From: an uncultured delta proteobacterium
Lineage (GTDB): Bacteria; Desulfobacterota; Binatia; DP-6
DNA length: 64,000 nt
Assembly: GCA_963851365.1 (NCBI GenBank)
Contig: CAWKPA010000006.1
Location: 49,353 to 113,352, forward strand
Direction: 5' to 3'
The position numbers and the translations under genes were made by a program. Under the pieces are notes generated by a model, which was given only the letters and a program-made list of their open reading frames with translations, did not search any database and was not told the origin of the DNA. Positions 3,588 to 62,619 of the stretch are shown one piece after another; position 1 is the stretch's first letter; each line of letters starts with the position of its first letter.

Positions 3588-3824
3588 ATGAAGGATACGG
3601 TCATCTATTTGGCGAAGCAGCTGGTGAACCGCCCCGACGACGTCGAGGTGAAGGAAATGCAGTCGGACACCACGACGGTGCTCGAATTGCGCGTGGCCCG
3701 GGAAGACATCGGCCGCGTGATCGGCAAGCAGGGGCGAACGGCGAAATCGATCCGCACCATCCTGAACGCGATCGCGTCACGATCCAATCGCAAGGTCGTC
3801 CTCGAAATCATCGAAGAGAAGTGA
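3588..3824 (+). CDS. KH-domain RNA-binding protein (UPF0109/YlqC-like)
   Basis: The motif VIGKQGRTAKSIRTIL is present, and the gene sits at the conserved position between rpsP and rimM. A GAGGAG Shine-Dalgarno precedes the ATG at 3588; the ORF track begins the frame at 3564. Confidence 0.8.
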   Translation: MKDTVIYLAKQLVNRPDDVEVKEMQSDTTTVLELRVAREDIGRVIGKQGRTAKSIRTILNAIASRSNRKVVLEIIEEK

Positions 3825-3828
3825 CGGC

Positions 3829-4353
3829 ATGACGGCCGCCGACGTCGGCACCGCGGTCTCGGTGGGCCAAATCGTCGGGGCGCACGCGCTGCGCGGTTGG
3901 GTGCGCCTGCGGCCCTACCAGACGCTCACCGCGAGCCTGGTGGCCGGGGGGCGGGTCTTCCTCGAGCGGGATGGCGTCCGCCGGGAGGCCCGCGTGACCC
4001 ACGCCGCCCCGCACGGGCAGGGTCTGGTGCTGCTCGGACTGGAGGGCGTGACCGATCGCACCACCGCCGAAGCACTGCGCGGCACCACGGTCCTGGTGCC
4101 CGGAGAGGACCTGCCGCCGCTCGGAGCCGACGAATACTGGCACCACGAGGTCCTCGGCTTCACGGTCGAGACCGTCGCGGGGGAGCCGATCGGGACCATC
4201 ACGGCTACCATGCACAACGGCCTGCACGACGTCTGGGAGGTCCGTGCCGACGGGCACGAGCATCTGATCCCGGTGGTCGCCGAGGTGGTCCGCGCCATCG
4301 ACAAGGAGGCCCGGCGCGTCCGCATCGAGCCGCTCCCGGGCCTGTTGGACTGA
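3829..4353 (+). CDS. rimM: 16S rRNA processing protein RimM
   Basis: 174 aa with RimM/PRC-barrel-like sequence (VGQIVGAHALRGWVRL); operon position matches. Confidence 0.9.
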   Translation: MTAADVGTAVSVGQIVGAHALRGWVRLRPYQTLTASLVAGGRVFLERDGVRREARVTHAAPHGQGLVLLGLEGVTDRTTAEALRGTTVLVPGEDLPPLGADEYWHHEVLGFTVETVAGEPIGTITATMHNGLHDVWEVRADGHEHLIPVVAEVVRAIDKEARRVRIEPLPGLLD

Positions 4354-4355
4354 CC

Positions 4356-5088
4356 CTGCGCGCCCACGTCATCACGCTCTTTCCCGAGACTCTTCGGGGG
4401 CGCGCTGGCCACCGGGCCCCTCAAACGGGCGCGCGAGCTGGGCGTGCTCGAAGTCTGGCTCCACCAGCTCCGCGACTATGCCACGGGCCGGCACCTCCAG
4501 GCCGACGACGTGCCGTACGGCGGCGGCCAGGGCATGGTGCTCAAGCCCGAACCGCTGGTCACCGCCATCGAAGGGGTGTCGGAGGCGGAGCGGCCACATC
4601 GTGTGCTGCTGGCGGCACGAGGGGCCCGCTTCGACCAGCATCGCGCGGCGGCGCTCGCCCGCGAGGAGAACCTGCTTCTGGTGTGCGGGCGGTACGAAGG
4701 CGTCGACGAGCGGGTGAGCGACTGGGTCGACGAAGAGCTGTCGATCGGCGATTACGTGCTGAGCGGCGGCGAGCTCGCGACGCTCGTGGTGCTCGATGCG
4801 ATCGCCCGGCTGCTGCCCGGCGTGCTCGGGAACCTCGCGTCTGCCCCGGACGACTCGTTCGCCACCGGGCTGCTCGAACACCCCCACTACACCCGCCCAT
4901 GGAACTTCCGGGATCGCGCCGTGCCGCCGGTGCTCGGCTCCGGCAACCACGAGGCGATCCGGCGCTGGCGGCGCGAGGAGGCGCTCCGCACCACCCTGGC
5001 CCGCCGTCCGGACCTGCTGCGCTCGGCACCGCTCGACGCCGCGGACCGGGCTTTTCTGCGCAGCCTCGGATGGCAGGACGATGGCTGA
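4356..5088 (+). CDS. trmD: tRNA (guanine37-N1)-methyltransferase TrmD, apparently frameshifted near 4389
   Basis: The N-terminal motif HVITLFPE is in frame 0. The rest of the protein ([30 protein letters not shown] ... YGGGQGMV ... [10 protein letters not shown] ... [11 protein letters not shown] ... [11 protein letters not shown]) is in frame 1, running from about 4390 to the stop at 5088. No canonical start codon lies in frame 0. Confidence 0.75.
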
Positions 5089-5641
5089 CCTCTACCTCGC
5101 CCTGCTCCACCACCCGGTCTACGACAAGACCGGCGCCGTCGTGACCACGGCCGTCACCAACCTCGACGTCCACGACCTGGCGCGGCAAGCGCGGACGTTC
5201 GGCGTGCGGGCCTTCTACGTGTGTACACCGGTGCCGACCCTGCGCCGCCTGGTCGCCCGCATCATGCGACACTGGGACTCGGGGCCGGGGGCCACCTACA
5301 ACGTCAACCGCCGTGAAGCCCTGGCGCTGGTGCGGCTCGCTCCGGAGCTCGATGCCGCCATCGCCGAGATCGAGCGGGAGACAGGCCGGCTTCCCAGGCT
5401 GATCGCCACCTCGGCCCGCAACGGCCCCTCCCGTCTGCCGTACGTCGCGTTGCGGGCGCGGCTCGCCGCCCCGGGTCCCCCGGAGCTGCTCATCTTCGGC
5501 ACCGGCTGGGGCCTGGCCGCGGAGGTGATGGACCGGGTCGATGACGTCCTCGAACCCATCTCCGGCACCGGGGACTGGAACCATCTGTCGGTCCGGGCCG
5601 CGTCCGCCATCATACTTGACCGGCTGCGCAGCGAGCGATAG
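5081..5641 (+). CDS. conserved protein between trmD and rplS (possible SPOUT-like fold)
   Basis: 186 aa beginning [35 protein letters not shown]; the ATG overlaps the trmD stop by 8 bp. The SPOUT-like call is a recollection-based guess only. Confidence 0.5.
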
Positions 5642-5655
5642 ACCTTCCCGGTTCC

Positions 5656-6081
5656 ATGAACCCGATCGACCGCATCGAGGCCGAGCAGCTCCGCAAGGAC
5701 GTCCCCACCTTCCGGCCGGGGGACACCGTCCGGGTCCACGTCCGGGTGGTCGAGGGCGACAAGGAGCGCATTCAGGTCTTCGAAGGCACCGTCCTCGGGC
5801 GCTCGGGTGGCGCCATCCGGGAAACGTTCACGGTCCGCAAGACTTCGTACGGGGTGGGCGTCGAACGCATCTTTCCGGTGCACTCGCCACGCATCGACCG
5901 GATAGACGTCGTCATGCGGGGTGCGGTGCGTCGCGCCAAGCTGTACTATCTGCGCGAACGGTCCGGCCGGGCGGCCCGTGTCACGGAAGACACGCGCCAG
6001 AAGGTGACCGGGGCCGGCAAAGGTCGCGGCGAGGTTTCCCAACCCGCCGCCCCCGCAGTCGAGTCGCCCGAGAACCCGTAA
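5656..6081 (+). CDS. rplS: 50S ribosomal protein L19
   Basis: Contains the L19 signature [29 protein letters not shown], followed by an extended C-terminal tail. Confidence 0.95.
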
Positions 6082-6091
6082 TCGGGCCCCG

Positions 6092-6460
6092 TCACCCCGG
6101 CACGGCGGCCACCACCCCCCGCTCCTTGGTCATGCGCGAGCGGCCCTCGAAGACCGCGCCTTCCTGAATCACGAGACCCTTCGCCTCCACGTCACCGAAG
6201 AGTCTCCCGCCGGCGCACACCTCGACTCGCGAGGCGCCGAGCACCTCGCCCCGCACCTCGCCGAGCACCACCAGCTTGTCGGCCCGCACCGTGGCGTGCA
6301 CGACGGCCTGCGGCCCCACCACCAGGAGATCGGCGGCGCTGACCTCGCCCTGCAGCTTACCCTCGACCCGGGTCGCCTGCACGAATGATATCTTGCCAGT
6401 CACCTCGGCATCTTGCCCGAGCGACACGCGAACGTCGTCCCACACGGTTGCACCTCCCAC
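6092..6460 (-). CDS. bactofilin-family (CcmA/DUF583) cytoskeletal protein
   Basis: 122 aa with repetitive beta-helical bactofilin-like sequence (GEVRGEVLGASRVEVCAGGRLFGDVEA...). Confidence 0.75.
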   Translation of the reverse strand: MGGATVWDDVRVSLGQDAEVTGKISFVQATRVEGKLQGEVSAADLLVVGPQAVVHATVRADKLVVLGEVRGEVLGASRVEVCAGGRLFGDVEAKGLVIQEGAVFEGRSRMTKERGVVAAVPG

Positions 6461-6532
6461 GTCCTCGACCCCTCCCGACGGCGGCGCAGTATAGGGACCT
6501 GACGGCGGGCTGTAAATGTCGCGCCGCGGAAT

Positions 6533-7534
6533 TCAGACGGGCGGCGCGGCGGATTCGGCGTCGGGCGGGAAGACGTGGCACGCGACGGCGCGCCCGGTGG
6601 CGCCCGCGACGAGAGGGGGCACCATTCGCCGGCAGATGTCGATCGCGCTGGGGCAGCGGGGATGGAATGCGCAACCCGCGGGTGGCGACGACGGATCGGG
6701 CGCCTCCGCGCCGGCGATCGCCGGCATGGGCCTGTGCCGGCGATGCGGGTCCGGGGTCGGGACGGCGGCCAACAGCGTCCGAGTATAGGGGTGGCGGGGG
6801 TCGTCGTAGACCTCCTGCCGTGTCCCGACCTCGACCAGCTTGCCGAGATACATGATCGCCACCCGATCGCTCAGGTGCTCCACGACACGCAGGTCGTGGG
6901 AGATGAAGAGCAGCGTGAGCCCGAGTCGCCGCTTGAGGTCCTGCAGGAGATTCAGGATCTGCGCCTGGATGGAGACATCGAGCGCCGACACCGCCTCGTC
7001 GGCGACGATGAAGCGCGGCTCCACCGCGAGCGCGCGGGCGATGCCGATGCGCTGCCGCTGGCCGCCGCTGAACTCGTGGGGATAGCGGTCGCCCGCATCC
7101 TGCGGCAGCCCCACCAACGCGAGCAGCGCGCGGACCCGTTCCCGGCGCTCCTCGCGCGTCCCGATCCGATGAACGAGGAGCCCTTCCCCGACGATGTCCG
7201 CGACCCGCAGGCGTGGGTTCAGGGAGCCATACGGATCCTGGAAGACGATCTGCATGGCGCGCCGCACCGCGCGCAGGTCGTCGCCTCCGAGTCCGCGGAG
7301 CGAGCGGCCCTCGAACAGGACGTCGCCGGCCGTGGGCTCGATCAGCCGGAGCACCAGGCGCCCCAGCGTCGACTTGCCGCAGCCCGACTCGCCCACCAGA
7401 CCGAGGGTCTCCCCGGCCGCGATCGCAAGCGACACGCCATCGACCGCACGAACCACCGCGCGCGGTCGGCCGAACAGGCCGCGCCCGACGGGGAAGTGCT
7501 TGTGCACATCCAGGACTTCGACGAGCAGGTTCAT
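6533..7534 (-). CDS. oligopeptide/dipeptide ABC transporter ATP-binding protein (OppF/DppF-like)
   Basis: Walker [10 protein letters not shown], signature LSGGQRQR, Walker B and a C-terminal Opp-type extension. The true start is the internal [10 protein letters not shown]; the ATG overlaps the upstream stop in an ATGA. Confidence 0.85.
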
Positions 7535-8487
7535 GCCCGGATGCACGCTACCCGGTGCCCGGGGTCGCGTTCCTCGAGGGGGGGCACGACGGCGGCGCAC
7601 GCCTCCACCTGGCGGGAACAGCGCTCGCGAAACGCGCAGCCCGGCGGCAGGCTCGTGAGGCTCGGCACCTGGCCGGGGATGGTCTCGAGCCGTTCGCGAC
7701 GCTGGCCCAGCGCAGGCATCGCACGCAGAAGCGCCTGGGTATAGGGGTGCCGCGGCCGGGCGAACAGCTCGTCGACTGGAGCCTGCTCGACGATGCGGCC
7801 CGCATACATGATCGCCACCTCGTCCGCCTGCTCGGCCACCACGCCCAGGTCGTGTGTGATCAAGATCATGGCCATGCCGTGCCGCGCGCGCAGCTCGCGG
7901 AGCAGCGCCAGGATCTCGGCCTGGATCGTCACGTCGAGCGCCGTCGTCGGCTCGTCGGCCAGCAGCACCGCGGGCTCGCACGCGATGGCGACGGCGATCA
8001 TCACCCGCTGGCGCATGCCGCCCGACAGCTGGTGCGGGTAGTCCCGTGCGCGCCGCGCCGGATCGGGGATGCCCACCTCGCGCAGCAGCCCGATGGCGCG
8101 CGCCCAGGCCTCGCGGCGCGACACCGGCTGGTGCAAGGCGACCGCCTCGGCAATCTGGCTGCCGGCCGTGAGCACCGGGTTCAGCGCGGTCATGGGCTCC
8201 TGGAAGATCATCGCCAGTTCGGCGCCGCGCAAGGCGCGCATCTCGGGCTCCGGGAGCGCCAGCAGTTCGCGACCCGCGAGCCGGATGCTTCCCCCGGCGA
8301 TGCGGCCGGGAGGTGGCACCAGGCGCATGATGCAGAGCGCGGTCATGCTCTTGCCGCACCCGGATTCGCCGACGAGCCCGAGCGTGCGCCCGCGGGCGAG
8401 CGAGAACGTCACGCCGTCGACCGCGCGCGCGTCACCCGCCTCGGTCGGGAAGACCATGCGCAGGTCGCGCACCTCGAGGAGCGACAT
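7531..8487 (-). CDS. oligopeptide/dipeptide ABC transporter ATP-binding protein (OppD/DppD-like)
   Basis: [18 protein letters not shown] and [10 protein letters not shown] motifs. The true start is the internal [13 protein letters not shown], not the upstream R-rich extension. Confidence 0.85.
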
Positions 8488-11038: not shown

Positions 11039-11497
11039 TCAGCCGGTTCGCCGCGGCCGGCGGCGCGGCGGCGGGCCGCCCTGCTGCGCGCCGATCCAGA
11101 CGGCGCCGCCCCGGAAGTGTTCCTTCTTCCAGATCGGCACGATCTCCTTCAGTCGATCGATCAGCCAGTGGCAGGCTTCGAACGCTTCGGTCCGATGCGC
11201 CGCGCTGACCGCGATGCCGACGCTGGCTTCCCCGACGGGCACCACACCGATCCGGTGCACCATGGCGACGCGCCGGATCGGCCACCGCCGCCGGGCCGTG
11301 CGGGCGAGTCGGCGCATTTCGCGCACGGCCATGCTGGCGAACGCTTCGTACTCCAGGCGGGTCACCCGTCGCCCGGCGTTCTCGTCGCGCGTGGTGCCGA
11401 GGAAGAGCACCGAGGCGCCCGCAGCCGGATCGCCCACCGCCGCCAGCAGGCGAGCGGGGTCGATCGCGACGGCGTCGATCGCGCACAGCTCAGCCAC
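11039..11497 (-). CDS. moaE: molybdopterin synthase catalytic subunit MoaE
   Basis: MoaE motifs HRIGVVPVGEASVGIAVSAAHR and PIWKKEHF. Confidence 0.85.
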   Translation of the reverse strand: MAELCAIDAVAIDPARLLAAVGDPAAGASVLFLGTTRDENAGRRVTRLEYEAFASMAVREMRRLARTARRRWPIRRVAMVHRIGVVPVGEASVGIAVSAAHRTEAFEACHWLIDRLKEIVPIWKKEHFRGGAVWIGAQQGGPPPRRRPRRTG

Positions 11498-11726
11498 CGC
11501 TCACCGGCGGGAATACGGCCATCTCGTCGCCGTCGACGAGCCTGTGGTCGGGCGCGACGTAGCGCTCGTTGACGGCGAGGCGCACCTGCACGCGCCCGGC
11601 GACCGGATGGGTCCGCGCCACGGCGTCCCACAGCGCGCCGGCGGTGGTGCCGGCGCGCACGCTGCGCTCCTCGCCGGGCCCGAGGTGCTCCCGCAGCGAG
11701 GCGAAGTACCGCACCCGCACCCGCAC
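11490..11726 (-). CDS. moaD: molybdopterin synthase sulfur-carrier subunit MoaD
   Basis: 78-aa ThiS/MoaD-like protein ending in GG; overlaps the moaE start. Confidence 0.8.
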   Translation of the reverse strand: MRVRVRYFASLREHLGPGEERSVRAGTTAGALWDAVARTHPVAGRVQVRLAVNERYVAPDHRLVDGDEMAVFPPVSGG

Positions 11727-12468: not shown

Positions 12469-13548
12469 GTGCGGCAATCACGACACCACCTGGCCAAGAC
12501 CGGGACACACTGCTATGCCCCGCAGCGCGTGGGCCGCATCGGCAAGCTGCTGGCGAGCCTGGTCGTGGGAGGCGCCTTCCTCTACCTGGCGTTCCGGGAC
12601 GTTCGGCTCGACCAGCTACGCCAGGCGTTCGGCCATCTCGATCTCCGCTGGCTGCTCCCGGCGGTCGCGATCAGCCTGCTCATCCAGGTGTTCCGCGCCT
12701 GGCGCTGGCAACTCCTCCTCCGCCCGCTGGCCCACGTGCCGTTCGGCACGTTGTGGGTGGTGGCCAGCGTCGCCTACATGGCCATCAACGTGCTGCCGAT
12801 TCGGATGGGCGAGGTGGTGCGCCCGTGGCTGCTGTCGCGGCGCTCGCACATCCGGTTCTCGAGCGTCGTCGGGAACCTCATCGTCGAGAAGACCGTCGAC
12901 TCCGCGGTGATCGTCTTCTACATCCTCCTCGGCCTGCTGACGACGCGGAACCTGCCGGGCTGGGTGCGCAGCGGCGCCATGGTGCCCGCGCTGGCCTTCG
13001 CCGCGCTCGCGGTGCTCGTCGTGCTACTGTGGTGGCGCGGCGAGCGCTTCGTCGAACGCTGGGTGACGCGTATTCTGCCGGCCCGGATCGGCACCCGCGT
13101 GGTCGAGATCGCGGGCTCCCTCGTCGACGGCATGCGCGTGCTCGGCGACCCGCGCCTGGTGCAGGCGGTTTTCGTGGTGTCGCTCGGGCTCTGGTTTCTG
13201 CCCATCCTCTCCAGCTGGGTGATGATCCAGGCCTTCGACATCGAGGCCCCCTTCAACGCCGCGCTCGCCGTCTTCATCCTGATCGGCTTCGGCACCGCGC
13301 TCCCGCAGCTGCCGGGCATGGTCGGCACCTACCAGCTCGCGTGTGTCTGGGCGCTCGGGCTCTTCGGCGTGCCGCAGGCCGAGGCGCTCGCGTATGGCAT
13401 CGTGCTCAACGCCGTGCAGCTCGCCACTCTGGTGGCCCAGGGCCTGGTGGCCCTGCCCCTCGCGGGGGTGTCGGTCGGCGACCTGCTCCGGGCCCAGCCG
13501 GCCGAGACGGGGACGCCGGCCGAGCGCGCGGGCGCGGGTTGCAGCTGA
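12469..13548 (+). CDS. UPF0104/flippase-like (lysylphosphatidylglycerol-synthase TM-region-like) membrane protein
   Basis: 359 aa with about 8 predicted TM helices in a pattern typical of the LPG-synthase TM / DUF2156 family. Confidence 0.65.
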   Translation: MRQSRHHLAKTGTHCYAPQRVGRIGKLLASLVVGGAFLYLAFRDVRLDQLRQAFGHLDLRWLLPAVAISLLIQVFRAWRWQLLLRPLAHVPFGTLWVVASVAYMAINVLPIRMGEVVRPWLLSRRSHIRFSSVVGNLIVEKTVDSAVIVFYILLGLLTTRNLPGWVRSGAMVPALAFAALAVLVVLLWWRGERFVERWVTRILPARIGTRVVEIAGSLVDGMRVLGDPRLVQAVFVVSLGLWFLPILSSWVMIQAFDIEAPFNAALAVFILIGFGTALPQLPGMVGTYQLACVWALGLFGVPQAEALAYGIVLNAVQLATLVAQGLVALPLAGVSVGDLLRAQPAETGTPAERAGAGCS

Positions 13549-15369: not shown

Positions 15370-17152
15370 ATGGCTACGCAGAACATCCCCCAGACCAGCT
15401 CTCCCAGTAAGAATCCCGCGCTCAACGCCTGGGTCGAAGAGTGTGCCCACCTCTGCAAGCCCGACCGTATCCACTGGGTCGACGGCTCGCAGGCGGAGAT
15501 CGACCAGCTGGTCGCGGAGATGCTCGCCAGCGGCACGCTGCACCGCCTGAACCCCGAGCAGTATCCGAATTGCTACCTCCACCGCTCGGACCCCTCCGAC
15601 GTCGCGCGCACGGAGCACCTCACCTTCATCTGCACCGAGCGCCAAGAGGACACCGGGCCCGACGAACAACTGGATGGCGCCGGCGGACGCCAAGCGAAAG
15701 GTGGGCGCGCTGTTCGACGGCGCCATGCGCGGCCGCACCATGTACGTGGTGCCGTACGTGATGGGGCCGCTCGGTTCCGCGATCTCGAAGGTCGGCGTCG
15801 AGATCACCGACAGCGCCTATGTCGTCGCGAACATGCGCATCATGACGCGCATGGGACGCGCCGCGCTCGAGCAGCTGGGCTCGGACGGCACGTTCGTCAA
15901 GGGTCTGCACTCGCTAGGCGACCTGTCGCCGGAGCGACGGTTCATCGTCCACTTCCCGGAAGAGAAGCTGATCTGGAGCGTCGGCTCGGGCTACGGCGGC
16001 AACGCGCTGCTCGGCAAGAAGTGCTTCGCGCTGCGTATCGCCTCGGTTCAGGCCAAGGAGGAGGGCTGGCTCGCGGAGCACATGCTGATCCTCGGCCTGG
16101 AGAGCCCGCAGGGCGAAACCACCTATATCGCCGCCGCATTCCCCAGCGCATGCGGCAAGACCAACCTGGCCATGCTGGTGCCGCCGGCATCGCAGCCGGG
16201 CTGGAAGATCTGGACGGTCGGCGACGACATCGCCTGGATGCGGCCGGGGCCGGACGGGCGGCTGTGGGCGATCAACCCCGAGGCGGGATTCTTCGGCGTC
16301 GCGCCGGGCACGTCGTCCAAGACCAACCCGAACGCCATCGCGAGCCTGCGAGCCAACTCCATCTTCACCAACGTCGCGGTGACCGACGACGGCCTCCCGT
16401 GGTGGGAAGGCTTCGACGGCGAGGTACCGGCGCGGCTGACGGACTGGCGGGGCCAGCCGTGGACCCGCGGCAGCACGGAGAAGGCCGCGCACCCGAACTC
16501 GCGGTTCACCGCGCCGGCGCGTCAATGCCCGTCGATCTCGCCGCACTGGGAAGATGCCAAGGGCGTGCCGATCAGCGCCTTCCTGTTCGGCGGCCGCCGG
16601 GCGCGTGTGGCGCCGCTCGTGCTCGAGGCACGCGACTGGGCGCACGGCGTGTTCGTCGGCGCGGCGGTCGCATCCGAGACCACCGCGGCGCAGACCGGCG
16701 CCGTCGGCGTGGTGCGGCGCGATCCCATGGCGATGCTGCCCTTCTGCGGCTACAACATGGCCGACTATTGGGCGCACTGGTTGCGGCTCGGGCCGACGCT
16801 GGCGAACCCGCCGCGCATTTTCCACGTCAACTGGTTCAAGCAGGACGCCGGTGGCAACTTCCTCTGGCCAGGCTTCGGCGAGAACGTGCGCGTGCTGCGG
16901 TGGGTGGCGGAGCGGTGTGCGGGCAAAGGGAAGGCGGTCGAGTCGCCGATCGGCTGGCTGCCCGCCGAGAATGCCCTCGACACCGCCGGCCTCTCGGTCA
17001 GCCCCGACACCATGCGGGAGCTGCTCGCCGTCGACCCGGCGGACTGGCGCGTGGAGGCGGAGAGCCTGGCCGAATTCTTCGCCAAGTTCGGCGACCGCCT
17101 GCCGCCAGAACTCGAGCGGCAGCGACAGGACCTGCTCGCGCGAGTCGGCTGA
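15370..17152 (+). CDS. pckG: phosphoenolpyruvate carboxykinase (GTP), apparently frameshifted near 15660
   Basis: The N-terminus up to [13 protein letters not shown] is in frame 1. The continuation [32 protein letters not shown] ... [11 protein letters not shown] ... CGKTNLAML ... FHVNWF is in frame 2. One extra base in the GGGCCCG run at 15655-15661 accounts for the shift. Confidence 0.85.
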
Positions 17153-17165
17153 GCCGCGCCCACCG

Positions 17166-17927
17166 CTAGCGACGCGCGCTCTGGGCGTGGTGCATTTCGC
17201 GCGCCAGGCGCCCGAACACCCCTACACCGTCCGCACCGAGGGTCGGGCCCACCTGCACCGCCTGCGCGCCCTTTGTCAGCGCACGGGTGACGTCCCAGCC
17301 CGAACCGATGCCGCCGCGCGCGATCACGTCGAGCGGGGCCCGCACCGCGAGGAGCAGCTTCTCGAACTCGGTGAACTCGTTGCGCACCACGACGGCCCGG
17401 GCGCCGCCGTCGATCAGCGCTTCGACCACGGCGCGATGGGGGAGCGGGCAGCGTTCCGGCAGCCGCACCCAGACGGGGACGGCGCTCGCCGCCGCCATGG
17501 CGCCCACCAGCGTGCGCAACGTCGCGAGGTCCTCGCAGGGGGCGATGGTGGCCTCGACCCAGGACTCGCCGAGATGGGCCTCGATCGCCGCCACGCCGGC
17601 ATCGGCGAAGACGCGCGCCAGCGTGGTGAACTCGTCGAGCGTGCCCCCGGCCACGCTGGCCACGACCGGCGGGCCGCCGGCGCCGGCCAGCTCGCCCGCG
17701 ACGGGCGCGAGCTTGTCGACGCCCGGGTTCTTCAGCGAGCGGAACTCCGGATGGACGAAGGGATGCACCGTGGCCGTCCGCAGCACCACGGCGCCGGTCT
17801 GGGACCGGGCGAGCGCCTTCAGCTCGCCCATCGACGTCACCGATCCGGCGGCGTTCATGGCGGCGAACGGCAGCGACACCCCTCCGGCATTGACCGCCCA
17901 GGCGGCAGCATCCGACACGCGGGTCAT
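17166..17927 (-). CDS. dihydroorotate-dehydrogenase-like (DHOD family TIM-barrel) protein
   Basis: 253 aa with NAAG, NPG and C-terminal GGIGSGWDV ... AQAVQVGP motifs of the DHOD/DHPD-like family. The ATG overlaps the upstream stop in an ATGA. Confidence 0.6.
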   Translation of the reverse strand: MTRVSDAAAWAVNAGGVSLPFAAMNAAGSVTSMGELKALARSQTGAVVLRTATVHPFVHPEFRSLKNPGVDKLAPVAGELAGAGGPPVVASVAGGTLDEFTTLARVFADAGVAAIEAHLGESWVEATIAPCEDLATLRTLVGAMAAASAVPVWVRLPERCPLPHRAVVEALIDGGARAVVVRNEFTEFEKLLLAVRAPLDVIARGGIGSGWDVTRALTKGAQAVQVGPTLGADGVGVFGRLAREMHHAQSARR

Positions 17928-19363
17928 GGCTCCCGCACCTCGATCGTCACTTCCACGAAGTCCGCCGCCCGGGCATCCCAGCGGAACGCTCGCGTCTCGG
18001 CCGCCTCCCAGGCATCGGAGATGACGACGTAGGTCACGTCGGGATACGCGGGTTCGCCGTCGAAGAGCGCACGGGCGCGGTCCTCGGCCGAGAAATACGC
18101 CCCGCTCTTCGGATGCGAGTGGTAGAGCACCGCGAGGCGTTCGCCCGCGCGCTCGGCTGCATCGAGCAGCTCGTACGCGTCGGCCCGCGGCGTGTACGCG
18201 CTCTCCGCCGTTCGCGTGTAGACCAGGGGCTCCCGGGCATGGAGCTCGTTCTGCACGTTGACGAAACGAATCACCCGCTGGCTCGCCCCGTCCACCACCG
18301 CCCCGCAGCACTCCTCCGCACCCGTCTCGCGCGCATGCGCCACCAGGGCGTCGAGCGTCGGGCGCGCCAGCACGAGTGGCGGCAGCCGGCTGTCGCGCTC
18401 GCGGCGGACGCGCGCCCGGATCACCCGCGCCAGGGTGTCGTTGCGCGGCGTCGGAACACCCCGGCGCGCGCCCTCGCGCACCAGGTGACCGGTGATGGCC
18501 TCGATCTCGGTGGGACGCCCGCGCTCCAGGTCCTGCAGCATCGAGGACCGGTGCCCCGCCGTGGGCGGCAACAGCGTCCCGTAGAAGTGCCGGCGATAGC
18601 TGGCGGCGTCCGGCCACGGCAGGGCGACGCCCGCCGCGCCCGCGACGGCCATCGCCTCGTCGAGCACGCCGTCCATGAGGGCGCGCGTGTCGGGATCCGC
18701 CGCCAGGTGCCCGTACGGCACGCCGAGCAGCGCACCCAGCGGGTTCAGCGCCGCGTTGTAGAGCGCCTTCGCCCACAACTCGGCCGTGATCGCGTCGGTG
18801 GCCCGTGCGGGGATGCCGGCCGCGGCGAGCATCTCCGCCCACCGCGCGGCCGCCGCCACGCGCGCGGCGTCGCGCGAATCGGGGCTTCCGATCAGGACTG
18901 GGGCCGCCTCGACGGTGACACGCACGCGGCCGGGCGCGAGTATCTCCGCGCCGAAGATCACACGCCCGCCGAGCACTCGCGACGCGCCGACGATCGCCGC
19001 GGCGCGCTCCAGATTGCCGAGACCATTCTGCAACGAGAGCAGATGCCCGTCCGTCGCCAGCCGCTTCTCGATCGCGAAGGCCATGGCGGCCGTGTCCCAG
19101 GACTTGACGGTGAGGAAGACGGCCGTAAAGGTGTCGCGCAACGCCAATACGTCGGGCACGCAGTCGAGTCCGCGCACATGGTGGTCGCCGAAGCATCCCT
19201 CGATGCGCAGCCCGTCGCGCCGGATGGCGTCGAGGTGCGCCACCCGACCGACCAGCGTGACCGGCCAGCCGCGCGCCGCGAGCAGCCCGCCGATGACCGA
19301 GCCGACCGCCCCGGCGCCCGCAATCAGGATCGGTCCTGCCGGCATGGTCTGGCGTTCCGTCAT
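17924..19363 (-). CDS. 2-dehydropantoate 2-reductase (PanE/ApbA) fused to a C-terminal JAMM/MPN+ metalloprotease domain
   Basis: N-terminus has the Rossmann motif IAGAGAVGS and KPR-like sequence over about 310 aa. The C-terminal ~150 aa carry EECCG ... YHSHPKSGAYFSAED, which matches the JAMM motif E-x(n)-HxH-x7-S-xxD. Confidence 0.7.
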   Translation of the reverse strand: MTERQTMPAGPILIAGAGAVGSVIGGLLAARGWPVTLVGRVAHLDAIRRDGLRIEGCFGDHHVRGLDCVPDVLALRDTFTAVFLTVKSWDTAAMAFAIEKRLATDGHLLSLQNGLGNLERAAAIVGASRVLGGRVIFGAEILAPGRVRVTVEAAPVLIGSPDSRDAARVAAAARWAEMLAAAGIPARATDAITAELWAKALYNAALNPLGALLGVPYGHLAADPDTRALMDGVLDEAMAVAGAAGVALPWPDAASYRRHFYGTLLPPTAGHRSSMLQDLERGRPTEIEAITGHLVREGARRGVPTPRNDTLARVIRARVRRERDSRLPPLVLARPTLDALVAHARETGAEECCGAVVDGASQRVIRFVNVQNELHAREPLVYTRTAESAYTPRADAYELLDAAERAGERLAVLYHSHPKSGAYFSAEDRARALFDGEPAYPDVTYVVISDAWEAAETRAFRWDARAADFVEVTIEVREP

Positions 19364-19460
19364 CGGCGTCCGACGATAGATGCCGGGTCCCTGCCCTACA
19401 AGCGCATGGCGGCCGGGACCTCGATTGACGGCACGCGGAGCCGCCGTCTATCGTCTCGTC

Positions 19461-20582
19461 GTGATTCGCCCCGATCGGCTGAAACGGTTCTTCCTCGACC
19501 TGGTCGGAATCGACAGCATCTCGCGGTGCGAGGGCCGCCTCGCCGCCCGCCTGGTCGACGAATTGCGCGACCTCGGCGCCACGATCACGTTCGACCGCGC
19601 GCACGAAGCCGTCGGCGGCGAGGTTGGCAACATGGTGGCCCGCATTCCCGGCACCACGGCGGCGCCACCATTTCTGCTCTGCGCGCACATGGACACGGTG
19701 GAGCCGGGCCTCGGCGTTCGAGCGGTCGACGAGGGCGACGTGGTGCGGAGCGACGGCACCACCGTGCTCGGCGGTGACGACAAATCGGGCATCGCCATCG
19801 CCTGCGAAGCGGTCCGCGCGGCTCGCGAACGCGGGGTGCCGCATCCGCCCGTGGATCTGGTGTTCACCATCTGCGAGGAGCTCGGACTGCTCGGGGCGCG
19901 ACACCTCGACATCACGCTCGTCGGCGCCCGCCGCGGGCTGGTCTTCGACAGCGACTCGCCGGGCGTCGTCTTCACCCGCGCCCCGGGCTCGCACGCGCTC
20001 GAGGCCGTGGTACACGGTCGCGCCGCGCATGCCGGGATGGCGCCCGAGCAGGGCGTGAACGCCATCCAGGTGGCGTCGGAGGCGATCGCCGCCATGCGTC
20101 TCGGCCGCATCGACCCCGAGACGACGGCCAACGTCGGTCTGATTCGGGGCGGCCGCGCCATCAACATCGTGCCCGACGAGGTGCGGCTGCGCGGCGAGGC
20201 CCGCAGCCACGACTTGGCACGCCTCGACGCGCAGTGCAGGCACATGCGCGGCTGCCTGGAGGCGGCGGTGGCACGTCACCCCGGCGCGCGGCTCGACCTC
20301 CGGATCGACCCGCTGTACCAGCCGATGGCGATCCCGGACGACGCGCCGGTCCTGCAGGTGCTCCGAGCCGGGGCCGCGGCCGCGGGCCACACCGTCCGCG
20401 CCGCTGCCATGGGCGGGGGGTGCGATGCCAACGTCCTCAACCGTCTCGGCTTCGAGGTGGTGAATCTCGGGACCGGCATGCGCGATATCCACACCACCAG
20501 CGAGTGGGTGCGGGTGAGCGACATGGTGGCCGCCGCCGAGGTCACGCTGGCGACGCTGGAGGTGGCGGCGACGGCGCGCTAG
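19461..20582 (+). CDS. M20-family metallopeptidase (peptidase T/tripeptidase-like)
   Basis: Metal-binding motifs HMDTV and GGDDKSGIA. GTG start at 19461; the gene is divergent from the panE fusion. Confidence 0.8.
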   Translation: MIRPDRLKRFFLDLVGIDSISRCEGRLAARLVDELRDLGATITFDRAHEAVGGEVGNMVARIPGTTAAPPFLLCAHMDTVEPGLGVRAVDEGDVVRSDGTTVLGGDDKSGIAIACEAVRAARERGVPHPPVDLVFTICEELGLLGARHLDITLVGARRGLVFDSDSPGVVFTRAPGSHALEAVVHGRAAHAGMAPEQGVNAIQVASEAIAAMRLGRIDPETTANVGLIRGGRAINIVPDEVRLRGEARSHDLARLDAQCRHMRGCLEAAVARHPGARLDLRIDPLYQPMAIPDDAPVLQVLRAGAAAAGHTVRAAAMGGGCDANVLNRLGFEVVNLGTGMRDIHTTSEWVRVSDMVAAAEVTLATLEVAATAR

Positions 20583-22949: not shown

Positions 22950-23180
22950 TCAGTGCGCCCGCTGCCGCGGCTGCCGCGCCGCGCCCGGCGTCACGCACAG
23001 GTTCACCAGGGCGAAGAACAGTTCGTCGATCGACTGGTAGACCCAGGGAGAGCTGCCGCCGGGCTCGTGGAAGTCGTCCGCCCGCGGGCTCCAGCCACGC
23101 AGGTCGTCGCCATACACGGGGTAGACCCCCGCGCCCACACGCAGGTAGGTGTGCGGTTGTTCGGCAAACGCGCGGTTCAT
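22950..23180 (-). CDS. small hypothetical protein
   Basis: 76 aa (MNRAFAEQPHTYLRVGAGVYPVYGDDLRGW...). The ATG overlaps the acyltransferase stop in an ATGA; it fills an otherwise 228-bp convergent gap. Confidence 0.35.
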   Translation of the reverse strand: MNRAFAEQPHTYLRVGAGVYPVYGDDLRGWSPRADDFHEPGGSSPWVYQSIDELFFALVNLCVTPGAARQPRQRAH

Positions 23181-26642: not shown

Positions 26643-29600
26643 TCACCAGGTGTCCACGCACGGTCGTTTCCGGCCGGTACGCGGGGGCGGCGGCGGCAGC
26701 GCACGGAGCGCGGTGCTCAAGCGCGTCCGCGTCTCGGCCGGGTCGATGACGTCGTCGATCTCGAACACCGACGCCATGTTGATGCCCTTGCCGTGCTCGT
26801 ACGCGCGCGCCACCATCTCCTCGAAGGCGGCGCGGCGGGCAGCGGGGTCCGCGATGGCCTCCAGCTCGCGGCGATAGCCGAGCTTCACCGCCCCTTCGAG
26901 GCCCATGCCGCCGAACTCGCCGGTCGGCCACGCGACGGTGAACACCGGGACGTGGAAGCTGCCGCCCGCCATGGCCTGCGCGCCGAGCCCGTAGCCCTTG
27001 CGCAGCACGACGGTGAAGATCGGCACCGTGACGCTGGCACCGACCACGAAGAGCCGGCAGCAATGGCGCACGAGCGCCGTCCTCTCCGCCTCGGGTCCCA
27101 CCATGATGCCGGGCGTGTCGCACAGCATCAGCACCGGCAGGTCGAAGGCGTCGCAGAGCTGGAGAAAGCGCGCCGCCTTGTCGGCGCCGTCGGCGTCGAT
27201 GGCGCCGCCGAGATGCGTCGGGTCGTTGGCGATCAGGCCCATCGGCCGGCCCTCGACGCGAATCAGCGCCGTCACCATGCCCCGGCCGAAGCGGTGGCGC
27301 AGCTCGAGCACCGAACCCTCGTCGGCCAGCGTGTCGATCACCGCGCGGACGTCGTAGGCGCGCAGCCGGTTCTCGGGGATCAGGTGGCGGAGCCGGCGCT
27401 GGTCGGCACACGTCCAATCCACCACCGGCCCCTGGAAGTACGCGAGGTATCGCTGCGCGACCCGGACCGCCTCCGCCTCGTCCGCCACCAGGACGTCGAC
27501 GACGCCGTTCGGCGCCTGCACCGACATCGGACCGACTTCCTCCGGCCGGAACACACCGAGCCCGCCGCCTTCGATCATGGCCGGCCCGCCCATGCCGACG
27601 TTGGCGTCGCGCGTCGCGATCACCACGTCGCACGAGCCGAGCAGCGCCGCATTGCCCGCGAAGCAGCGCCCCGCGACGACGCCGACCAGCGGCACCAGCC
27701 CGCTCAGGCGGCCGAAGAGGTGGAACGCCATCGTGTCGAGTCCGGCCACCCCCGGCCCGTCGCTGTCCCCGGGTCGCCCGCCGCCGCCCTCGGCGAAGAG
27801 CACGACCGGCAGGCGCCACTGCGCGGCGAGCTCGAACACGCGGTCCTTCTTGCGGTGGTTGTGCAGCCCCTGGGTGCCGGCGAGCACCGTGTAGTCGTAG
27901 GCCACCACCAGGCAGCGGGCGCGCTCCAGCCCCACGAGACTGCCGTTCACGCGCCCGATGCCGGTCACCAGCCCGTCGGCCGGCGTCCGCGCGATCAGAT
28001 CGTCGAGCGCGCGCCGGCGGCGCTGCGCCGCGACCACCAGCGAGCCGTACTCGACGAAGGAGCCCGGGTCGCACAGCTCCTCCACGTTCTCCCGCGCCGT
28101 CCGCCGGCCGCTCGCATGCCGGCGGGCCACCGCTTCGGGACGCGCGGCGTCCCGCGTGATCGCCTGGCGGCTGAGCACCTCCTCGAGATCGGGCCGCCTG
28201 GCGTCGAGGTCGACAACCCCGACGCTCCCGGTCGCGGCCACGCCGACGTCGCCCTCCTCGACGAAGGCGAGCGCGCTCCCTTCGAGCACCGTGTCGCCCA
28301 GCGCAACCAGGAAGCGCCGGACGACGCCGGCCACCGTGGAGGCGACGACGTGCTCCATCTTCATCGCCTCCAAGACCAGCAGCGGCTGTCCCGCGTGCAC
28401 CGGCTCGCCCTCACGGACTTCGACGCTCACCACGCTGCCCTGCATCGGCGCCGTCACCACTGCCGTGCCGGCCGGCGCCTCCGGGGCGCCGCCCGCCGCG
28501 GCGGGGGATGCGGCGGCCTTCCCGTGCGTCAGGACGGCCAGCGGATCGAGCGCATCGACGCGCGCGCCGGCCAACGCCGCCCCGCCCCCGGGCGCGGGCG
28601 CGCCCGGGACCGCGTCGTCCGCCGGGCCGATCAGCTCGGCGGCGTGCGCTTCGACGAAGCCGGTGTGCACCCGGTGCGCCGCCACGTCGGGGTGGCGCAG
28701 CAGGCGGCGCAGGAACGGCAGGTTGGTGGCGACCCCGGCGACGGCGCACTCGTCCGCCGCGCGAGCCGCCCGCGCCACCGCATCGGGGAACGCGCGCGAC
28801 GTGCTGTGCGCGACGATCTTCGCCAGCAGCGCGTCGAAGCGGGGATGCACGCGGGCGCCCGCACGCATCGCCGTGTCGACGCGGATCCCGGGGCCGCTCG
28901 GCAGCTCGAACGTCGTGACGACGCCGATCGACGGCCGCACGCCGCCCGCGGCATCGATCGTCTCCGCATTGACGCGCAGCTGAATCGCGAAGCCGCGGGG
29001 CGGCGGCGGCGCCGTCTCTGCCAGCTCGAGGCGATCCAGCGTCAGACCGCTCGCCAGCTCGAGCTGCAGCCGGACCAGGTCGATGCCGGTCACCGCCTCG
29101 GTGACCGTATGCTCGACCTGCAGGCGCGGGTTCACCTCCAGGAACGCGATCGCCGCATCGTCCCCCGGATCGGTCGCATCGACCAGGAACTCGACGGTGG
29201 CGAGGTTGTCGAGCCGCACCGCCCGGGCCAGAGCCAGCGCGGCCTCGAGCAGGCGCGCCCGCACGCCGTGGACCAGGCCAGGGCTGGGCGCCACCTCGAC
29301 GATCTTCTGGTGCCGGCGCTGCAGGCTGCACTCGCGCTCCCACAGATGGGTGACGGCGCCGCTGCCGTCGCCCGCCACCTGCACCTCGAGGTGCCGCGCG
29401 CGCGGCAACAGCCGCTCGACATAGAGCGCGCCGTCGCCGAAGGCCTGACGCGCCTCGGAGCGGCAGCGCGCCACCGCCTCGTCGACCTCGTCCGGCCGCG
29501 ACACCACCCGCATCCCGCGCCCGCCGCCCCCGACCACCGCCTTCACCACCGCGACGCCGCCGGGCCCGAGGGACGCGAGAAACGCGCGCACCTCGTCCGC

Positions 29601-30017
29601 GCCGACCGGAGCGGTCGACCCTGGCAACACCGGGACGCCCTGCTCCGCCGCCGTCGCACGGGCCCGCAATTTGTCGCCGAAGAGCTCGAGCAACTCCGGC
29701 CGCGGGCCGACGAACGCGATGCCGGCATCCGCGCACAGGCGGGCAAAGCCGGCGTGCTCGGACAGGAACCCCCAGCCGGGGTGAACCGCGTCGCAGCCGG
29801 CGTCGCGCGCCACGGCCACCAGCTGCGCGGCGTCGAGGTAGGCCGCCGGGCCGTCGCCATCGAGCGCGCGTACGTCGGGCACGTGGCGCACGTGCGGCGC
29901 GTCGGCGTCGTCCCGCGCGTGGACGGCGACGGCGTGGATGCCCAGCTCGGCCGCCGCCCGCGCGACGCGTACGGCGACCTCGCCGCGGTTGGCGATGAGA
30001 AGGCGCGTTGGAAGCAC
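26643..30017 (-). CDS. single-chain biotin-dependent acyl-CoA carboxylase (BC-BCCP-CT; long-chain acyl-CoA carboxylase-like)
   Basis: 1124 aa. The biotin carboxylase domain begins LLIANRGEVAVRVARAAAELG. The biotinyl domain carries EAMKMEH. The C-terminal carboxyltransferase domain has GGGRPGDSDG ... MGGPAMIEGGGLG. GTG start at 30017. Confidence 0.9.
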   Translation of the reverse strand: MLPTRLLIANRGEVAVRVARAAAELGIHAVAVHARDDADAPHVRHVPDVRALDGDGPAAYLDAAQLVAVARDAGCDAVHPGWGFLSEHAGFARLCADAGIAFVGPRPELLELFGDKLRARATAAEQGVPVLPGSTAPVGADEVRAFLASLGPGGVAVVKAVVGGGGRGMRVVSRPDEVDEAVARCRSEARQAFGDGALYVERLLPRARHLEVQVAGDGSGAVTHLWERECSLQRRHQKIVEVAPSPGLVHGVRARLLEAALALARAVRLDNLATVEFLVDATDPGDDAAIAFLEVNPRLQVEHTVTEAVTGIDLVRLQLELASGLTLDRLELAETAPPPPRGFAIQLRVNAETIDAAGGVRPSIGVVTTFELPSGPGIRVDTAMRAGARVHPRFDALLAKIVAHSTSRAFPDAVARAARAADECAVAGVATNLPFLRRLLRHPDVAAHRVHTGFVEAHAAELIGPADDAVPGAPAPGGGAALAGARVDALDPLAVLTHGKAAASPAAAGGAPEAPAGTAVVTAPMQGSVVSVEVREGEPVHAGQPLLVLEAMKMEHVVASTVAGVVRRFLVALGDTVLEGSALAFVEEGDVGVAATGSVGVVDLDARRPDLEEVLSRQAITRDAARPEAVARRHASGRRTARENVEELCDPGSFVEYGSLVVAAQRRRRALDDLIARTPADGLVTGIGRVNGSLVGLERARCLVVAYDYTVLAGTQGLHNHRKKDRVFELAAQWRLPVVLFAEGGGGRPGDSDGPGVAGLDTMAFHLFGRLSGLVPLVGVVAGRCFAGNAALLGSCDVVIATRDANVGMGGPAMIEGGGLGVFRPEEVGPMSVQAPNGVVDVLVADEAEAVRVAQRYLAYFQGPVVDWTCADQRRLRHLIPENRLRAYDVRAVIDTLADEGSVLELRHRFGRGMVTALIRVEGRPMGLIANDPTHLGGAIDADGADKAARFLQLCDAFDLPVLMLCDTPGIMVGPEAERTALVRHCCRLFVVGASVTVPIFTVVLRKGYGLGAQAMAGGSFHVPVFTVAWPTGEFGGMGLEGAVKLGYRRELEAIADPAARRAAFEEMVARAYEHGKGINMASVFEIDDVIDPAETRTRLSTALRALPPPPPRTGRKRPCVDTW

Positions 30018-62123: not shown

Positions 62124-62619
<496 letters not shown>

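Follow-up and report, generated by a model that had tools for sequence, protein, structure and literature searches.

A gene fusion is one of the more dependable clues to joint protein function that sequence alone can offer. The 64-kb stretch of DNA analysed here (the window) comes from Binatia, which are widespread in soil and sediment and of which we know no cultured member. One of its open reading frames (ORFs) joins a ketopantoate reductase (KPR)-family enzyme to a JAMM metalloprotease domain. The locus raises two questions, namely whether the fusion is genuine, and what a reductase and a peptidase might do on the same polypeptide.

Layout and origin of the fusion gene

The uninterrupted ORF lies at 17924..19363 on the minus strand, with its stop codon at 17924-17926, and encodes 479 residues. 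The sequence-only reading of this DNA had described it as a single KPR::JAMM protein, and the ORF listing together with the Pfam and NCBIfam searches bore this out. The protein starts with the ApbA N-terminal Rossmann domain (aa 12-159; 18887..19330, minus strand; PF02558, 110 bits), placed also by the PanE alignment, followed by the ApbA_C domain (aa 192-317; 18413..18790, minus strand; PF08546, 118 bits). The C-terminal part is a Prok-JAB (JAMM/MPN+; MEROPS M67) domain (aa 335-479; 17927..18361, minus strand), for which Pfam PF14464 gave 66.6 bits (cut-off 25) over residues 335-461 and profile searches matched the PDB entries 2KCQ and 2KKS. The junction between the two parts (aa 321-337, RERDSRLPPLVLARPTL; 18353..18403, minus strand) was defined by nucleotide and protein alignments and the AF2 model. 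In this model, the final KPR helix passes directly into the first JAB strand, with a pLDDT of 89-97 at the junction. The model of the whole fusion (mean pLDDT 91.7, pTM 0.86) has no disordered linker, and the protein is predicted to be compact. A Foldseek search against the PDB found no chain covering both domains, and tblastn of the fusion against PLSDB yielded no plasmid homologue with both domains, the matches being KPR-only with identities of at most 38%. The fused KPR-JAMM protein is a new domain architecture built from known families.

It had been suggested that the fusion could stem from a lost stop codon or an indel, given other frame problems in the window. Such a problem does exist, as the sequence GGGCCC at 15655-15660 gives the PEPCK gene one C too many, a probable homopolymer indel. 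The worry about an artefact is therefore reasonable. The parent genes share a 13-nt overlap in relatives, which an overlooked stop codon or indel might falsely join, and public databases hold false fusions of the KPR-JAB pair. However, the evidence for the fusion ORF goes against an artefact. The same in-frame junction is shared by at least six contigs of other samples, comprising P0002-P0006, which are 78-90% identical to the window fusion and come from different JGI and ENA samples, and L090, the ORF of which runs open to the contig end. In addition, a Logan contig from an independent assembly encodes an identical protein (P0001), protein alignment revealed that the amino-acid sequence across the junction is conserved in the fused homologues, and the change at the junction is 5 nt, unlike a homopolymer slip. 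The fusion is genuine and naturally fixed, not an indel artefact, and we regard a false joining of two overlapping genes as highly improbable.

A search for the same fusion in other genomes detected, besides P0002-P0006 and L090, a second fused lineage (P0007/P0011) represented by 22 contigs with about 53% identity (51-55%). Three further candidates from the representative search, P0393, P0433 and P0500, were rejected as additional fused lineages, as their translations are frameshift-garbled. P0122, a 154-aa JAB protein 78% identical to the window domain, was considered as a stand-alone split sister and likewise rejected. Its contig extends just 8 nt further upstream, in an open reading frame (..RVMPPLTLAR), indicating that P0122 is a truncated fused gene.

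The split relatives, as seen in the syntenic split loci L005 and L006, encode the KPR-family protein (329 aa) and the JAB protein (~155 aa) in two different frames that share 13 nt. Alignment against these two split orthologues revealed a 5-nt gap at the overlap in the window lineage. The missing 5 nt join the KPR and JAB frames, and the start Met of JAB is now a Leu. In the second fused lineage, the KPR stop codon was lost in frame, and in NJ trees the two fused lineages branch within separate clades of split genes. As the mutations differ, the fusion arose twice. An overlap of 4 or 13 nt is seen in 16 of the 24 split loci, which comprise the 22 GTDB split loci as well as L005 and L006. The view that orthologues always encode the two domains separately fits the majority (22 split against one fused among the GTDB loci), whereas two lineages are truly fused.

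Active sites of the two domains

The reductase part matched TIGR00745 with 240 bits against a cut-off of 141, and the nucleotide-binding GxGxxG motif is present as GAGAVGS at aa 16-22. Alignment puts N113, K199, N207, S274 and E286 at the positions of Asn98, Lys176, Asn184, Ser244 and Glu256 of E. coli PanE. These five catalytic or 2-oxo-acid-anchoring residues are invariant in the alignment of E. coli PanE and 10 Binatia homologues. Two other positions of the pocket differ: Y217 takes the place of PanE Asn194 and H271 that of Asn241, both being nearly invariant in the Binatia subfamily. In PanE, Asn194 and Asn241 are the ligands of the ketopantoate 4-hydroxyl (residue roles according to PMC10127515). 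As judged from the aligned positions, the 2-oxo-acid ligands are kept and both ligands of the 4-hydroxyl are replaced, so that the substrate might be ketopantoate or another 2-oxo acid. The NCBIfam equivalog cut-offs were all missed, the best score being 178 bits against 252 for NF005091. In the Foldseek comparison with the PDB, D-mandelate dehydrogenases resemble the reductase as closely as proven KPRs do. No panB, panC or panD gene was seen within the 64-kb window.

The JAMM motif was earlier called intact, and the alignment with 2KCQ and 2KKS agrees. The motif consists of E351 (in EECCG) and H415-S-H417-x7-S425-x2-D428, and careful alignment found all metal ligands in place. Between its Glu and HxH, the JAB subfamily conserves additional residues, namely N-x-Q-x-x-L-H, R and Y. 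The same subfamily motifs are found in a 51% identical JAB at locus L019, which lies in an operon of ThiS-ThiF, PALP (CysM-like), JAB and rhodanese genes. Such a neighbourhood, with genes for a ThiS/MoaD-type carrier and an E1-like enzyme, is missing from the fusion operon and from 79 of the 80 related loci, whereas L019 has the full operon. Searching the ThiF, CysM and rhodanese homologues of L019 by tblastn against all loci and the whole window returned only L019 itself. A PADLOC scan gave no match to a defence-system JAB (Cap3-like).

The operon and the 64-kb window contain no sulfur-carrier, E1-like or rhodanese gene except a moaD-moaE pair. The moaD gene (78 aa, C-terminus ...PPVSGG; 11490..11726, minus strand) overlaps moaE (11039-11497), and both are assigned by synteny with L006, the genes of which match Pfam ThiS and MoaE. 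It lies ~6.2 kb from the 3' end of the fusion ORF, in accordance with the earlier estimate of about 6 kb, and its product is a possible in-trans substrate for the JAB domain. In this genome, the link to moaD is weaker than the sequence-only reading implied, because MoaD already ends in Gly-Gly. Across the lineage it becomes stronger, because the C-termini of the orthologues end in GGA, GGR, GGC or GG plus 10 aa; such proteins with residues past GG would be candidate substrates that need a peptidase of this kind. Over the 80 loci, a search for ubiquitin-like ORFs near JAB by ORF clustering, a GG-end filter and a MoaD HMM identified only moaD, in 7 loci. Taken together, the operon context of L019 and the extended GG ends of the relatives' MoaD proteins suggest that the JAB domain is most likely a C-terminal hydrolase of sulfur carriers.

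Neighbouring genes and the conserved pair

Downstream of the fusion lies a DHOD-like TIM-barrel gene of 253 aa (17166..17927, minus strand; ORF listing; PF01180, 32 bits; AF2 pLDDT 92). Its ATG, within CCATGACC, overlaps the TGA of the fusion by 4 nt (ATGA), consistent with the 4-bp overlap noticed before, and the gene is translationally coupled to the fusion through this overlap. Structural comparison by Foldseek yields a TM of about 0.8 and an E of about 1e-12 at 18-21% identity to class-1 DHODs. However, the catalytic loop N-L-S-C-P-N of DHOD reads H-L-G-E-S-W (family consensus AEPW), with Glu at the position of Cys130 and Trp at that of Asn132. The protein scored 53 bits with NF005574 against a cut-off of 269, and its relatives, about 110 clusters, form a close-knit orphan family that a score gap sets apart from real DHODs. 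The former label of a DHOD-like oxidoreductase is therefore right as to the fold, but the protein is not a dihydroorotate dehydrogenase, as the catalytic residues are absent.

On the other side, a divergently transcribed M20 PepT-like peptidase gene (19380..20582, plus strand; TIGR01883, 305 bits against a cut-off of 274) adjoins the operon in 11 of the 14 loci of the window clade. We treat it as context, and its membership in the KPR-JAB unit is putative. A reductive-pyrimidine route in which the DHOD-like protein and M20 would supply beta-alanine for pantothenate was considered and rejected: M20 scores above the cut-off of the PepT-like model, and the DHOD/DPD catalytic residues are absent from the DHOD-like protein.

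The four hydrolase and oxidoreductase genes M20, KPR, JAB and DHOD-like are clustered in the window clade, which is in favor of another function for the JAB domain. It might be an amidohydrolase of small molecules or peptides, working with the reductase, the DHOD-like flavoenzyme and the M20 peptidase in a catabolic or salvage route, for example in hydrolysis of pantothenate-like or N-acyl compounds or in beta-alanine supply. The lack of a ubiquitin-like gene in the operon and the extra residues N-x-Q-x-x-L-H, R and Y of the subfamily would also fit such an enzyme. However, the same residues occur in the JAB of L019 within a classical ThiS-ThiF/CysM operon, M20 is transcribed away from the operon and missing from 3 of the 14 loci, and the DHOD-like gene is missing throughout the second KPR-JAB clade. 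Moreover, we know of no JAMM enzyme acting on small-molecule amides. We consider an amidohydrolase of this kind improbable.

The survey of gene order covered 80 GTDB species loci with a JAB gene of this subfamily, almost all of them from Binatia. A split KPR gene lies directly upstream of JAB in 22 of the 80 loci and is fused to it in one. In 56 of the 80, JAB has no adjoining KPR, so that any coupling between the two is, as judged by gene order, optional. The flanks of the KPR-JAB loci in clade 2 vary widely by synteny, suggesting that the pair itself is the conserved unit. In the second fused lineage, P0011 accommodates a 62-aa insertion in the linker, as seen by protein alignment, which makes a strictly fixed geometry of the two domains less likely. 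The conservation of the pair and its twofold fusion hint at a shared pathway, and we see about an even chance that the two domains serve a single one.

Based on these data, the reading we prefer, and hold to be slightly favored overall, is that the ORF encodes a bifunctional protein that arose from two merged, translationally coupled operon genes of Binatia and the halves of which keep their ancestral chemistry. Both active sites are intact by alignment, and the pair stays together as its flanks change. The C-terminal domain would be a zinc hydrolase of the Mec/HcyD type cutting at the Gly-Gly of ThiS/MoaD-type carriers, where it might either mature GG-X precursors or hydrolyse carrier adducts. 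The N-terminal part would be an NAD(P)H-dependent 2-oxo-acid reductase with a side-chain pocket unlike that of E. coli PanE. The main effect of the fusion might be to lock two enzymes, which were co-translated even before, into 1:1 expression and probably to keep them physically together. The GG-ended MoaD of this genome, the 56 JAB loci without KPR, the residues Tyr194 and His241 (PanE numbering), the equally close resemblance to D-mandelate dehydrogenases, the insertion in P0011, and an operon and window free of sulfur-carrier, E1-like and rhodanese genes apart from moaD-moaE were counted against this preferred reading.

Comparison with known systems

To our knowledge, no 2-mercapto-acid metabolite is known for Binatia, a point that counts against one further reading of the pair. 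This reading follows from the biosynthesis of the antibiotic chuangxinmycin, where a 2-oxo acid is handled successively by the JAMM protein CxnF/Cxm3 and the KPR-family reductase CxnC/Cxm6 (PMC5925218, PMC12087186, bioRxiv 10.64898/2025.12.11.692455). Cxm6 is termed a 2-dehydropantoate reductase and reduces a thione (bioRxiv 10.64898/2025.12.11.692455). The sequence-only reading knew of no pairing of a JAMM domain with a KPR. This needs correction as regards the partnership, since CxnF and CxnC have been described, although no other JAMM-KPR partnership was found in the literature searched. It stands as regards the fused protein, as CxnF and CxnC are separate genes and a single JAMM-KPR polypeptide is undescribed in that literature.

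By analogy, the Binatia protein could be a coupled thiolation module of primary metabolism. The JAMM domain, as a "deubiquitinase-like sulfurtransferase", would draw sulfur from a ThiS/MoaD-type thiocarboxylate provided in trans and turn a 2-oxo acid into its 2-thioxo counterpart. The fused KPR-family domain would at once reduce this product to a 2-mercapto acid, using NAD(P)H, and the DHOD-like flavoprotein would take over from there. The sole experimentally described JAMM and KPR-family partnership runs in this order (PMC12087186, PMC5925218, bioRxiv 10.64898/2025.12.11.692455), and the E1 that activates the Cxn carrier is likewise encoded elsewhere (PMC5925218). The persistence of the pair across shifting contexts with two fusions, the kinship of the JAB subfamily to JABs of carrier-dependent sulfur transfer, and a reductase that retains the 2-oxo and carboxylate ligands and replaces both 4-hydroxyl ligands would also agree with it. 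However, no carrier gene was found in or beside the operon, nor an aminotransferase or other source of 2-oxo acids next to it, and the MoaD of the window is a standard partner of MoaE ending in GG. In addition, CxnF has 238 aa (PMC5925218) compared with about 150 aa for the JAB domain here, and JAB is found as a single copy away from any KPR in the 56 species loci mentioned above. We therefore regard a thiolation module as possible but unlikely. Its full form, in which a single polypeptide carries sulfur from the carrier through a 2-thioxo to a 2-mercapto acid that feeds a new thiol metabolite or cofactor, with the DHOD-like protein as the next step in one clade, is rather doubtful.

If the Cxn-like logic were true, carrier-protein-dependent thiol biosynthesis would be part of the central metabolism of Binatia, and the fusion would be a natural single-chain enzyme producing 2-mercapto acids. 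If, on the other hand, the halves act independently, the locus would still be an example of how overlapping genes fuse, and a warning that annotations as "2-dehydropantoate 2-reductase" can hide a peptidase domain and an altered substrate pocket.

Similar to the PanE/ApbA reductases (EC 1.1.1.169) of E. coli (1KS9/2OFP), T. kodakarensis (5AYV/5HWS) and R. eutropha (3HWR), the N-terminal part has the same fold and two-domain layout, with a Foldseek TMt of 0.85-0.9, and shares the GxGxxG motif and the equivalents of the five catalytic residues. It differs from them in bearing a C-terminal JAMM domain, and from PanE in having Tyr for Asn194 and His for Asn241. The downstream protein shares the TIM barrel and the C-terminal GG...G.D phosphate-binding motif with class-1 DHODs (L. 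lactis DHODA, 1DOR; T. cruzi, 2E68), whereas it is about 55 residues shorter and has Arg in place of both FMN-contacting Lys residues.

The JAB domain has the Prok-JAB fold and the E...HxH-x7-S-xx-D signature of Mec (with CysO) from M. tuberculosis, HcyD from W. succinogenes and QbsD from P. fluorescens, and its 51% identical relative at L019, with ThiS-ThiF, CysM and rhodanese genes in one operon, connects it with the bacterial JAMM hydrolases of sulfur carriers. In contrast to Mec, HcyD and QbsD, the domain here is fused to a reductase, contains a subfamily-specific insertion of ~10 residues (NxQxxLHA...R..Y), and has no carrier, E1 or cysteine-synthase gene in its operon.

The comparison with CxnF/CxnE/CxnC is one of description and gene order rather than of sequence. 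Both systems encode a JAMM protein along with a KPR-family reductase, the Binatia pair being fused in the window and adjacent in 22 GTDB loci. The Cxn cluster brings its own carrier, CxnE/Cxm4, with a decapeptide after the GG, as well as genes for an aminotransferase, a P450 and a radical-SAM enzyme; none of these lies beside the Binatia pair. The Cxn genes are separate and belong to an actinomycete secondary-metabolite cluster, whereas the Binatia genes are fused or overlapping and reside in a housekeeping region of the chromosome.

The fusion ORF and its neighbours

The window, with a G+C content of about 72%, carries an uninterrupted 479-aa ORF on the minus strand (17924-19363) that joins a ketopantoate-reductase-type (KPR) part to a Prok-JAB (JAB) peptidase part. 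Pfam matches far over the cut-offs were found for ApbA (residues 12-159), ApbA_C (residues 192-317) and Prok-JAB (residues 335-461). The ORF scored 240 bits with the NCBIfam subfamily model TIGR00745 (apbA_panE; cut-off 141) and passed none of the NCBIfam equivalog models; the database label of fused proteins is merely '2-dehydropantoate 2-reductase'. Alignment revealed a complete JAMM motif with intact metal ligands, comprising E351 (in EECCG), H415-S-H417, S425 and D428. The fusion and the DHOD-like gene that overlaps it by 4 nt, as described in the sequence-only reading, are thus present, and the interpretation attached to them holds in part.

That reading allowed for a lost stop codon or an indel, and two observations favour such an assembly or sequencing error. 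The GTP-dependent PEPCK gene (15370-17152, plus strand), 700 bp from the fusion ORF, is split across two frames, as a GGGCCC run (15655-15660) holds one C more than in the orthologue at the homologous locus L006 (...EDTGP|TNNWM...). Either the assembly has a homopolymer indel error at this site or the gene has recently become a pseudogene. In addition, public protein sets hold frameshift-garbled KPR-JAB fusions (P0393, P0433 and P0500), joined via out-of-frame translation stretches; these were rejected as false fusions of indel-rich assemblies, which raise apparent architecture counts. However, a 9-kb Logan contig from a separate assembly encodes the identical fusion protein, and the search of other genomes yielded full-length homologues from other JGI and ENA samples (P0002-P0005; 90, 80, 80 and 78% identity), together with a fragment (P0006) and a copy truncated by the contig end (L090). 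All six share the in-frame junction ...RARVR(R/L)ERD(S/R)(R/V)LPPLVLARPTL..., which in the window differs from split relatives by 5 nt and not by a homopolymer slip. The AlphaFold2 model (68 input sequences; mean pLDDT 91.7, pTM 0.86) is confident throughout, with the final KPR helix (306-326) running directly to the initial JAB strand (330-333). Therefore, the junction is genuine, and an artefact is extremely improbable.

The DHOD-like gene (17166-17927, minus strand; 253 aa) starts at the ATG in CCATGACC, which overlaps the TGA of the fusion by 4 nt and has GGGAG just upstream. The model of its product (pLDDT 92) superposes on class-1 DHODs with a TM-score of about 0.8 at 18-21% identity, whereas the protein is about 55 residues shorter. 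The catalytic loop NLSCPN is replaced by HLGESW, with a conserved Glu and Trp at the positions of Cys130 and Asn132, and both FMN lysines are arginines. The family is tight (some 110 clusters, identities of 49% or more), and scores fall from 188 to 52 bits between it and real DHODs. The product is an orphan enzyme of the DHOD fold and not PyrD.

Conservation and origin of the KPR-JAB pair

A scan with the JAB-domain profile of one genome per GTDB species gave 80 loci, one per genome, almost all in MAGs with a Binatia or 'delta proteobacterium' label. JAB has KPR immediately upstream in 22, is fused to it in one and lies 1.4 kb from it in another; KPR is missing from the 6-kb flank in the other 56. 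The sequence-only reading had asked whether orthologues are always separate genes: most are split (22 versus one fused in GTDB), but two lineages are truly fused. The neighbourhood is stable in the window's clade, where alone the DHOD-like gene adjoins the pair. In a second clade the flanks change locus by locus and the pair stays, the pattern expected if selection holds both genes together. Comparison of these loci indicates that the pairing is conserved and recurrent.

The window and L005 and L006, loci of Binatia-type MAGs, share the order MaoC pair, acyltransferase, 76-aa ORF, FAD-binding gene, LPG_synthase_TM, KPR, JAB and DHOD-like gene, followed by PEPCK, DUF4345, MiaB and mog-moaD-moaE in L006 and the window and by PPK2 in L005; an M20 peptidase gene lies upstream of KPR in L005 and is absent there in L006. 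In L005 and L006, KPR is a separate 329-aa gene that stops 13 nt past the ATG of JAB in a different frame. The window lineage is 5 nt shorter at this overlap, which joins the frames and turns the JAB start Met into Leu. Overlaps of 13 nt occur in 11 of the 24 split pairs compared and of 4 nt in five. The two genes were thus coupled in translation prior to fusing.

The other fused lineage (P0007/P0011, at loci L001, L008 and L061; 51-55% identity) was found on 22 contigs from ENA, JGI and Logan, next to APH kinase and nucleotidyltransferase genes, with the DHOD-like gene absent. In its closest split relative, L021, stop and start share one frame (...GSR*PMPL...), and L001 reads through (...GSKVHQSPAL...), indicating in-frame stop-codon loss. 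In neighbour-joining trees of both domains, the two fused lineages nest in different split-pair clades. The fusion arose at least twice, through different mutations. P0011 (36 member sequences) carries a 186-nt in-frame insertion exactly in the KPR-JAB linker (L008, about 1050-1240), in which inverted repeats occur internally and a Q-x-P-A-L flank is duplicated. The insertion resembles a small mobile repeat that the protein tolerates in the form of a 62-aa linker.

Other features of the window were also recorded. The 76-aa ORF (22950-23180, minus strand) has no family match and comes after the acyltransferase gene both in the window and in L005, L006 and L007. Two paralogous LPG_synthase_TM membrane-protein genes, both in the conserved neighbourhood, lie near mog-moaD-moaE (12469-13548, plus strand) and beside an M20 peptidase gene (20579 to about 21540, minus strand). 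An acyl-CoA carboxylase fusion of 1124 aa (26643-30017, minus strand) combines biotin carboxylase, biotin-carrier and carboxyltransferase domains and adjoins an acyl-CoA-dehydrogenase-like gene. A 699-aa protein (47820-49919, minus strand) includes a domain of the thaumatin family (PF00314, 74 bits), unusual in bacteria. An IS481-type transposase gene (60900-62099, plus strand) and a BrnT toxin gene (62335-62598, minus strand) coincide with a drop in G+C from about 72% to 63%, and probably mark the boundary of mobile or foreign DNA.

Putative activities of the two halves

Among solved structures, the reductase is nearest to R. eutropha 3HWR and to the T. kodakarensis enzyme, a proven KPR, and D-mandelate dehydrogenases are structurally as near as true KPRs. 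Alignment with E. coli PanE revealed that Asn98, Lys176 (2-oxo group), Asn184, Ser244 (carboxylate) and Glu256 are all invariant, while Asn194 and Asn241, whose side chains contact the 4-hydroxyl of ketopantoate-type substrates (PMC10127515), are Tyr and His across the whole Binatia subfamily. Therefore, the domain is predicted to be a functional 2-oxo-acid reductase that uses NAD(P)H, and ketopantoate is not necessarily its substrate.

For the JAB domain, the closest solved structures are 2KCQ and 2KKS, both small MPN proteins from bacteria, and a defence-system scan ruled out a defence-system JAB. The subfamily is single-copy in the surveyed genomes, usually with no ubiquitin-like gene near JAB in the surveyed loci. 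A stand-alone JAB (L006, 9443-9910) is extended at its C-terminus by 155 residues rich in Lys, Ala and Pro, with a composition like that of histone H1; other members lack this tail. The nearest relative found outside the KPR-linked clades (L019; 51% identity) has the same signatures HARETxPxECCG, NxQxxLHA and YHSHP...YFSxED. Its unidirectional operon (3809-7554), in a MAG labelled Sulfotelmatobacter, encodes a ThiS-ThiF fusion, PALP (CysM-like), JAB, a YezD-like small ORF and a tandem-rhodanese protein, the classic carrier-protein-dependent cysteine context of Mec; JAB overlaps PALP by 7 nt. No ThiF-like, CysM-like or rhodanese gene was found in the whole 64-kb window.

The moaD reported near the fusion does exist (11490-11726, minus strand; overlapping moaE), but its product already ends in Gly-Gly, as in L018, and extensions are seen only in relatives. 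The orthologues end in GGA (L006, 15454-15693; L015, 9954-10193), GGR (L014, 6282-6521), GGC (L022, 9819-10067) or GG followed by TGESRVSYH (L078, 9363-9635). In QbsD/QbsE and HcyD/HcyS, a JAMM peptidase takes off the C-terminal extension of the carrier ahead of adenylation. Removal by the JAMM peptidase is likewise needed in CxnF/CxnE (PMC5925218). Extended MoaD forms would require such trimming, and the lineage's single JAB is the obvious candidate MoaD C-terminal peptidase.

Proposed function and comparison with known systems

The fusion protein is genuine, with both active-site motifs intact. We somewhat favour a reading in which each half retains its ancestral activity: the N-terminal half would act as a 2-oxo-acid reductase and the C-terminal half as a hydrolase at the Gly-Gly of ThiS/MoaD-type carriers, and the fusion would fix their equimolar co-expression and association. 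Chances are about even that both halves serve a common pathway. A small-molecule amidase role of JAB is improbable.

The DHOD fold and the families of both domains are already well described, and the evidence on the fusion demands no new chemistry. No PDB structure spans both domains, no plasmid record holds the combination, and in the classic survey of JAB contexts in prokaryotes 'pantoate' never occurs and 'reductase' refers to sulfur-assimilation enzymes. The fusion is a new architecture made of known families, and more than a curiosity, as the pairing is conserved and recurrent. The sequence-only reading knew of no described JAMM-KPR pairing; a literature search on JAMM/Mov34 with ketopantoate/dehydropantoate reductase returned, besides an unrelated match, only the chuangxinmycin cluster, which has both. 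There, CxnF/Cxm3 has two tasks: it matures the carrier CxnE, and it moves the carrier's sulfur onto an alpha-keto acid to give a thione, which the KPR-family CxnC/Cxm6 reduces to a thiol (PMC12087186; PMC5925218; bioRxiv 10.64898/2025.12.11.692455). Coupled chemistry of this type would suit a fused enzyme handling an unstable thione, and the changed 4-hydroxyl pocket agrees with a non-pantoate substrate. However, the pair has neither a dedicated carrier nor an aminotransferase or other partner beside it, and JAB sits apart from any KPR in most species. Coupling of this kind is unlikely here. The farthest-reaching reading, in which one polypeptide would carry out carrier-dependent thiolation in central metabolism as a counterpart of the chuangxinmycin pair, is likewise rather unlikely.
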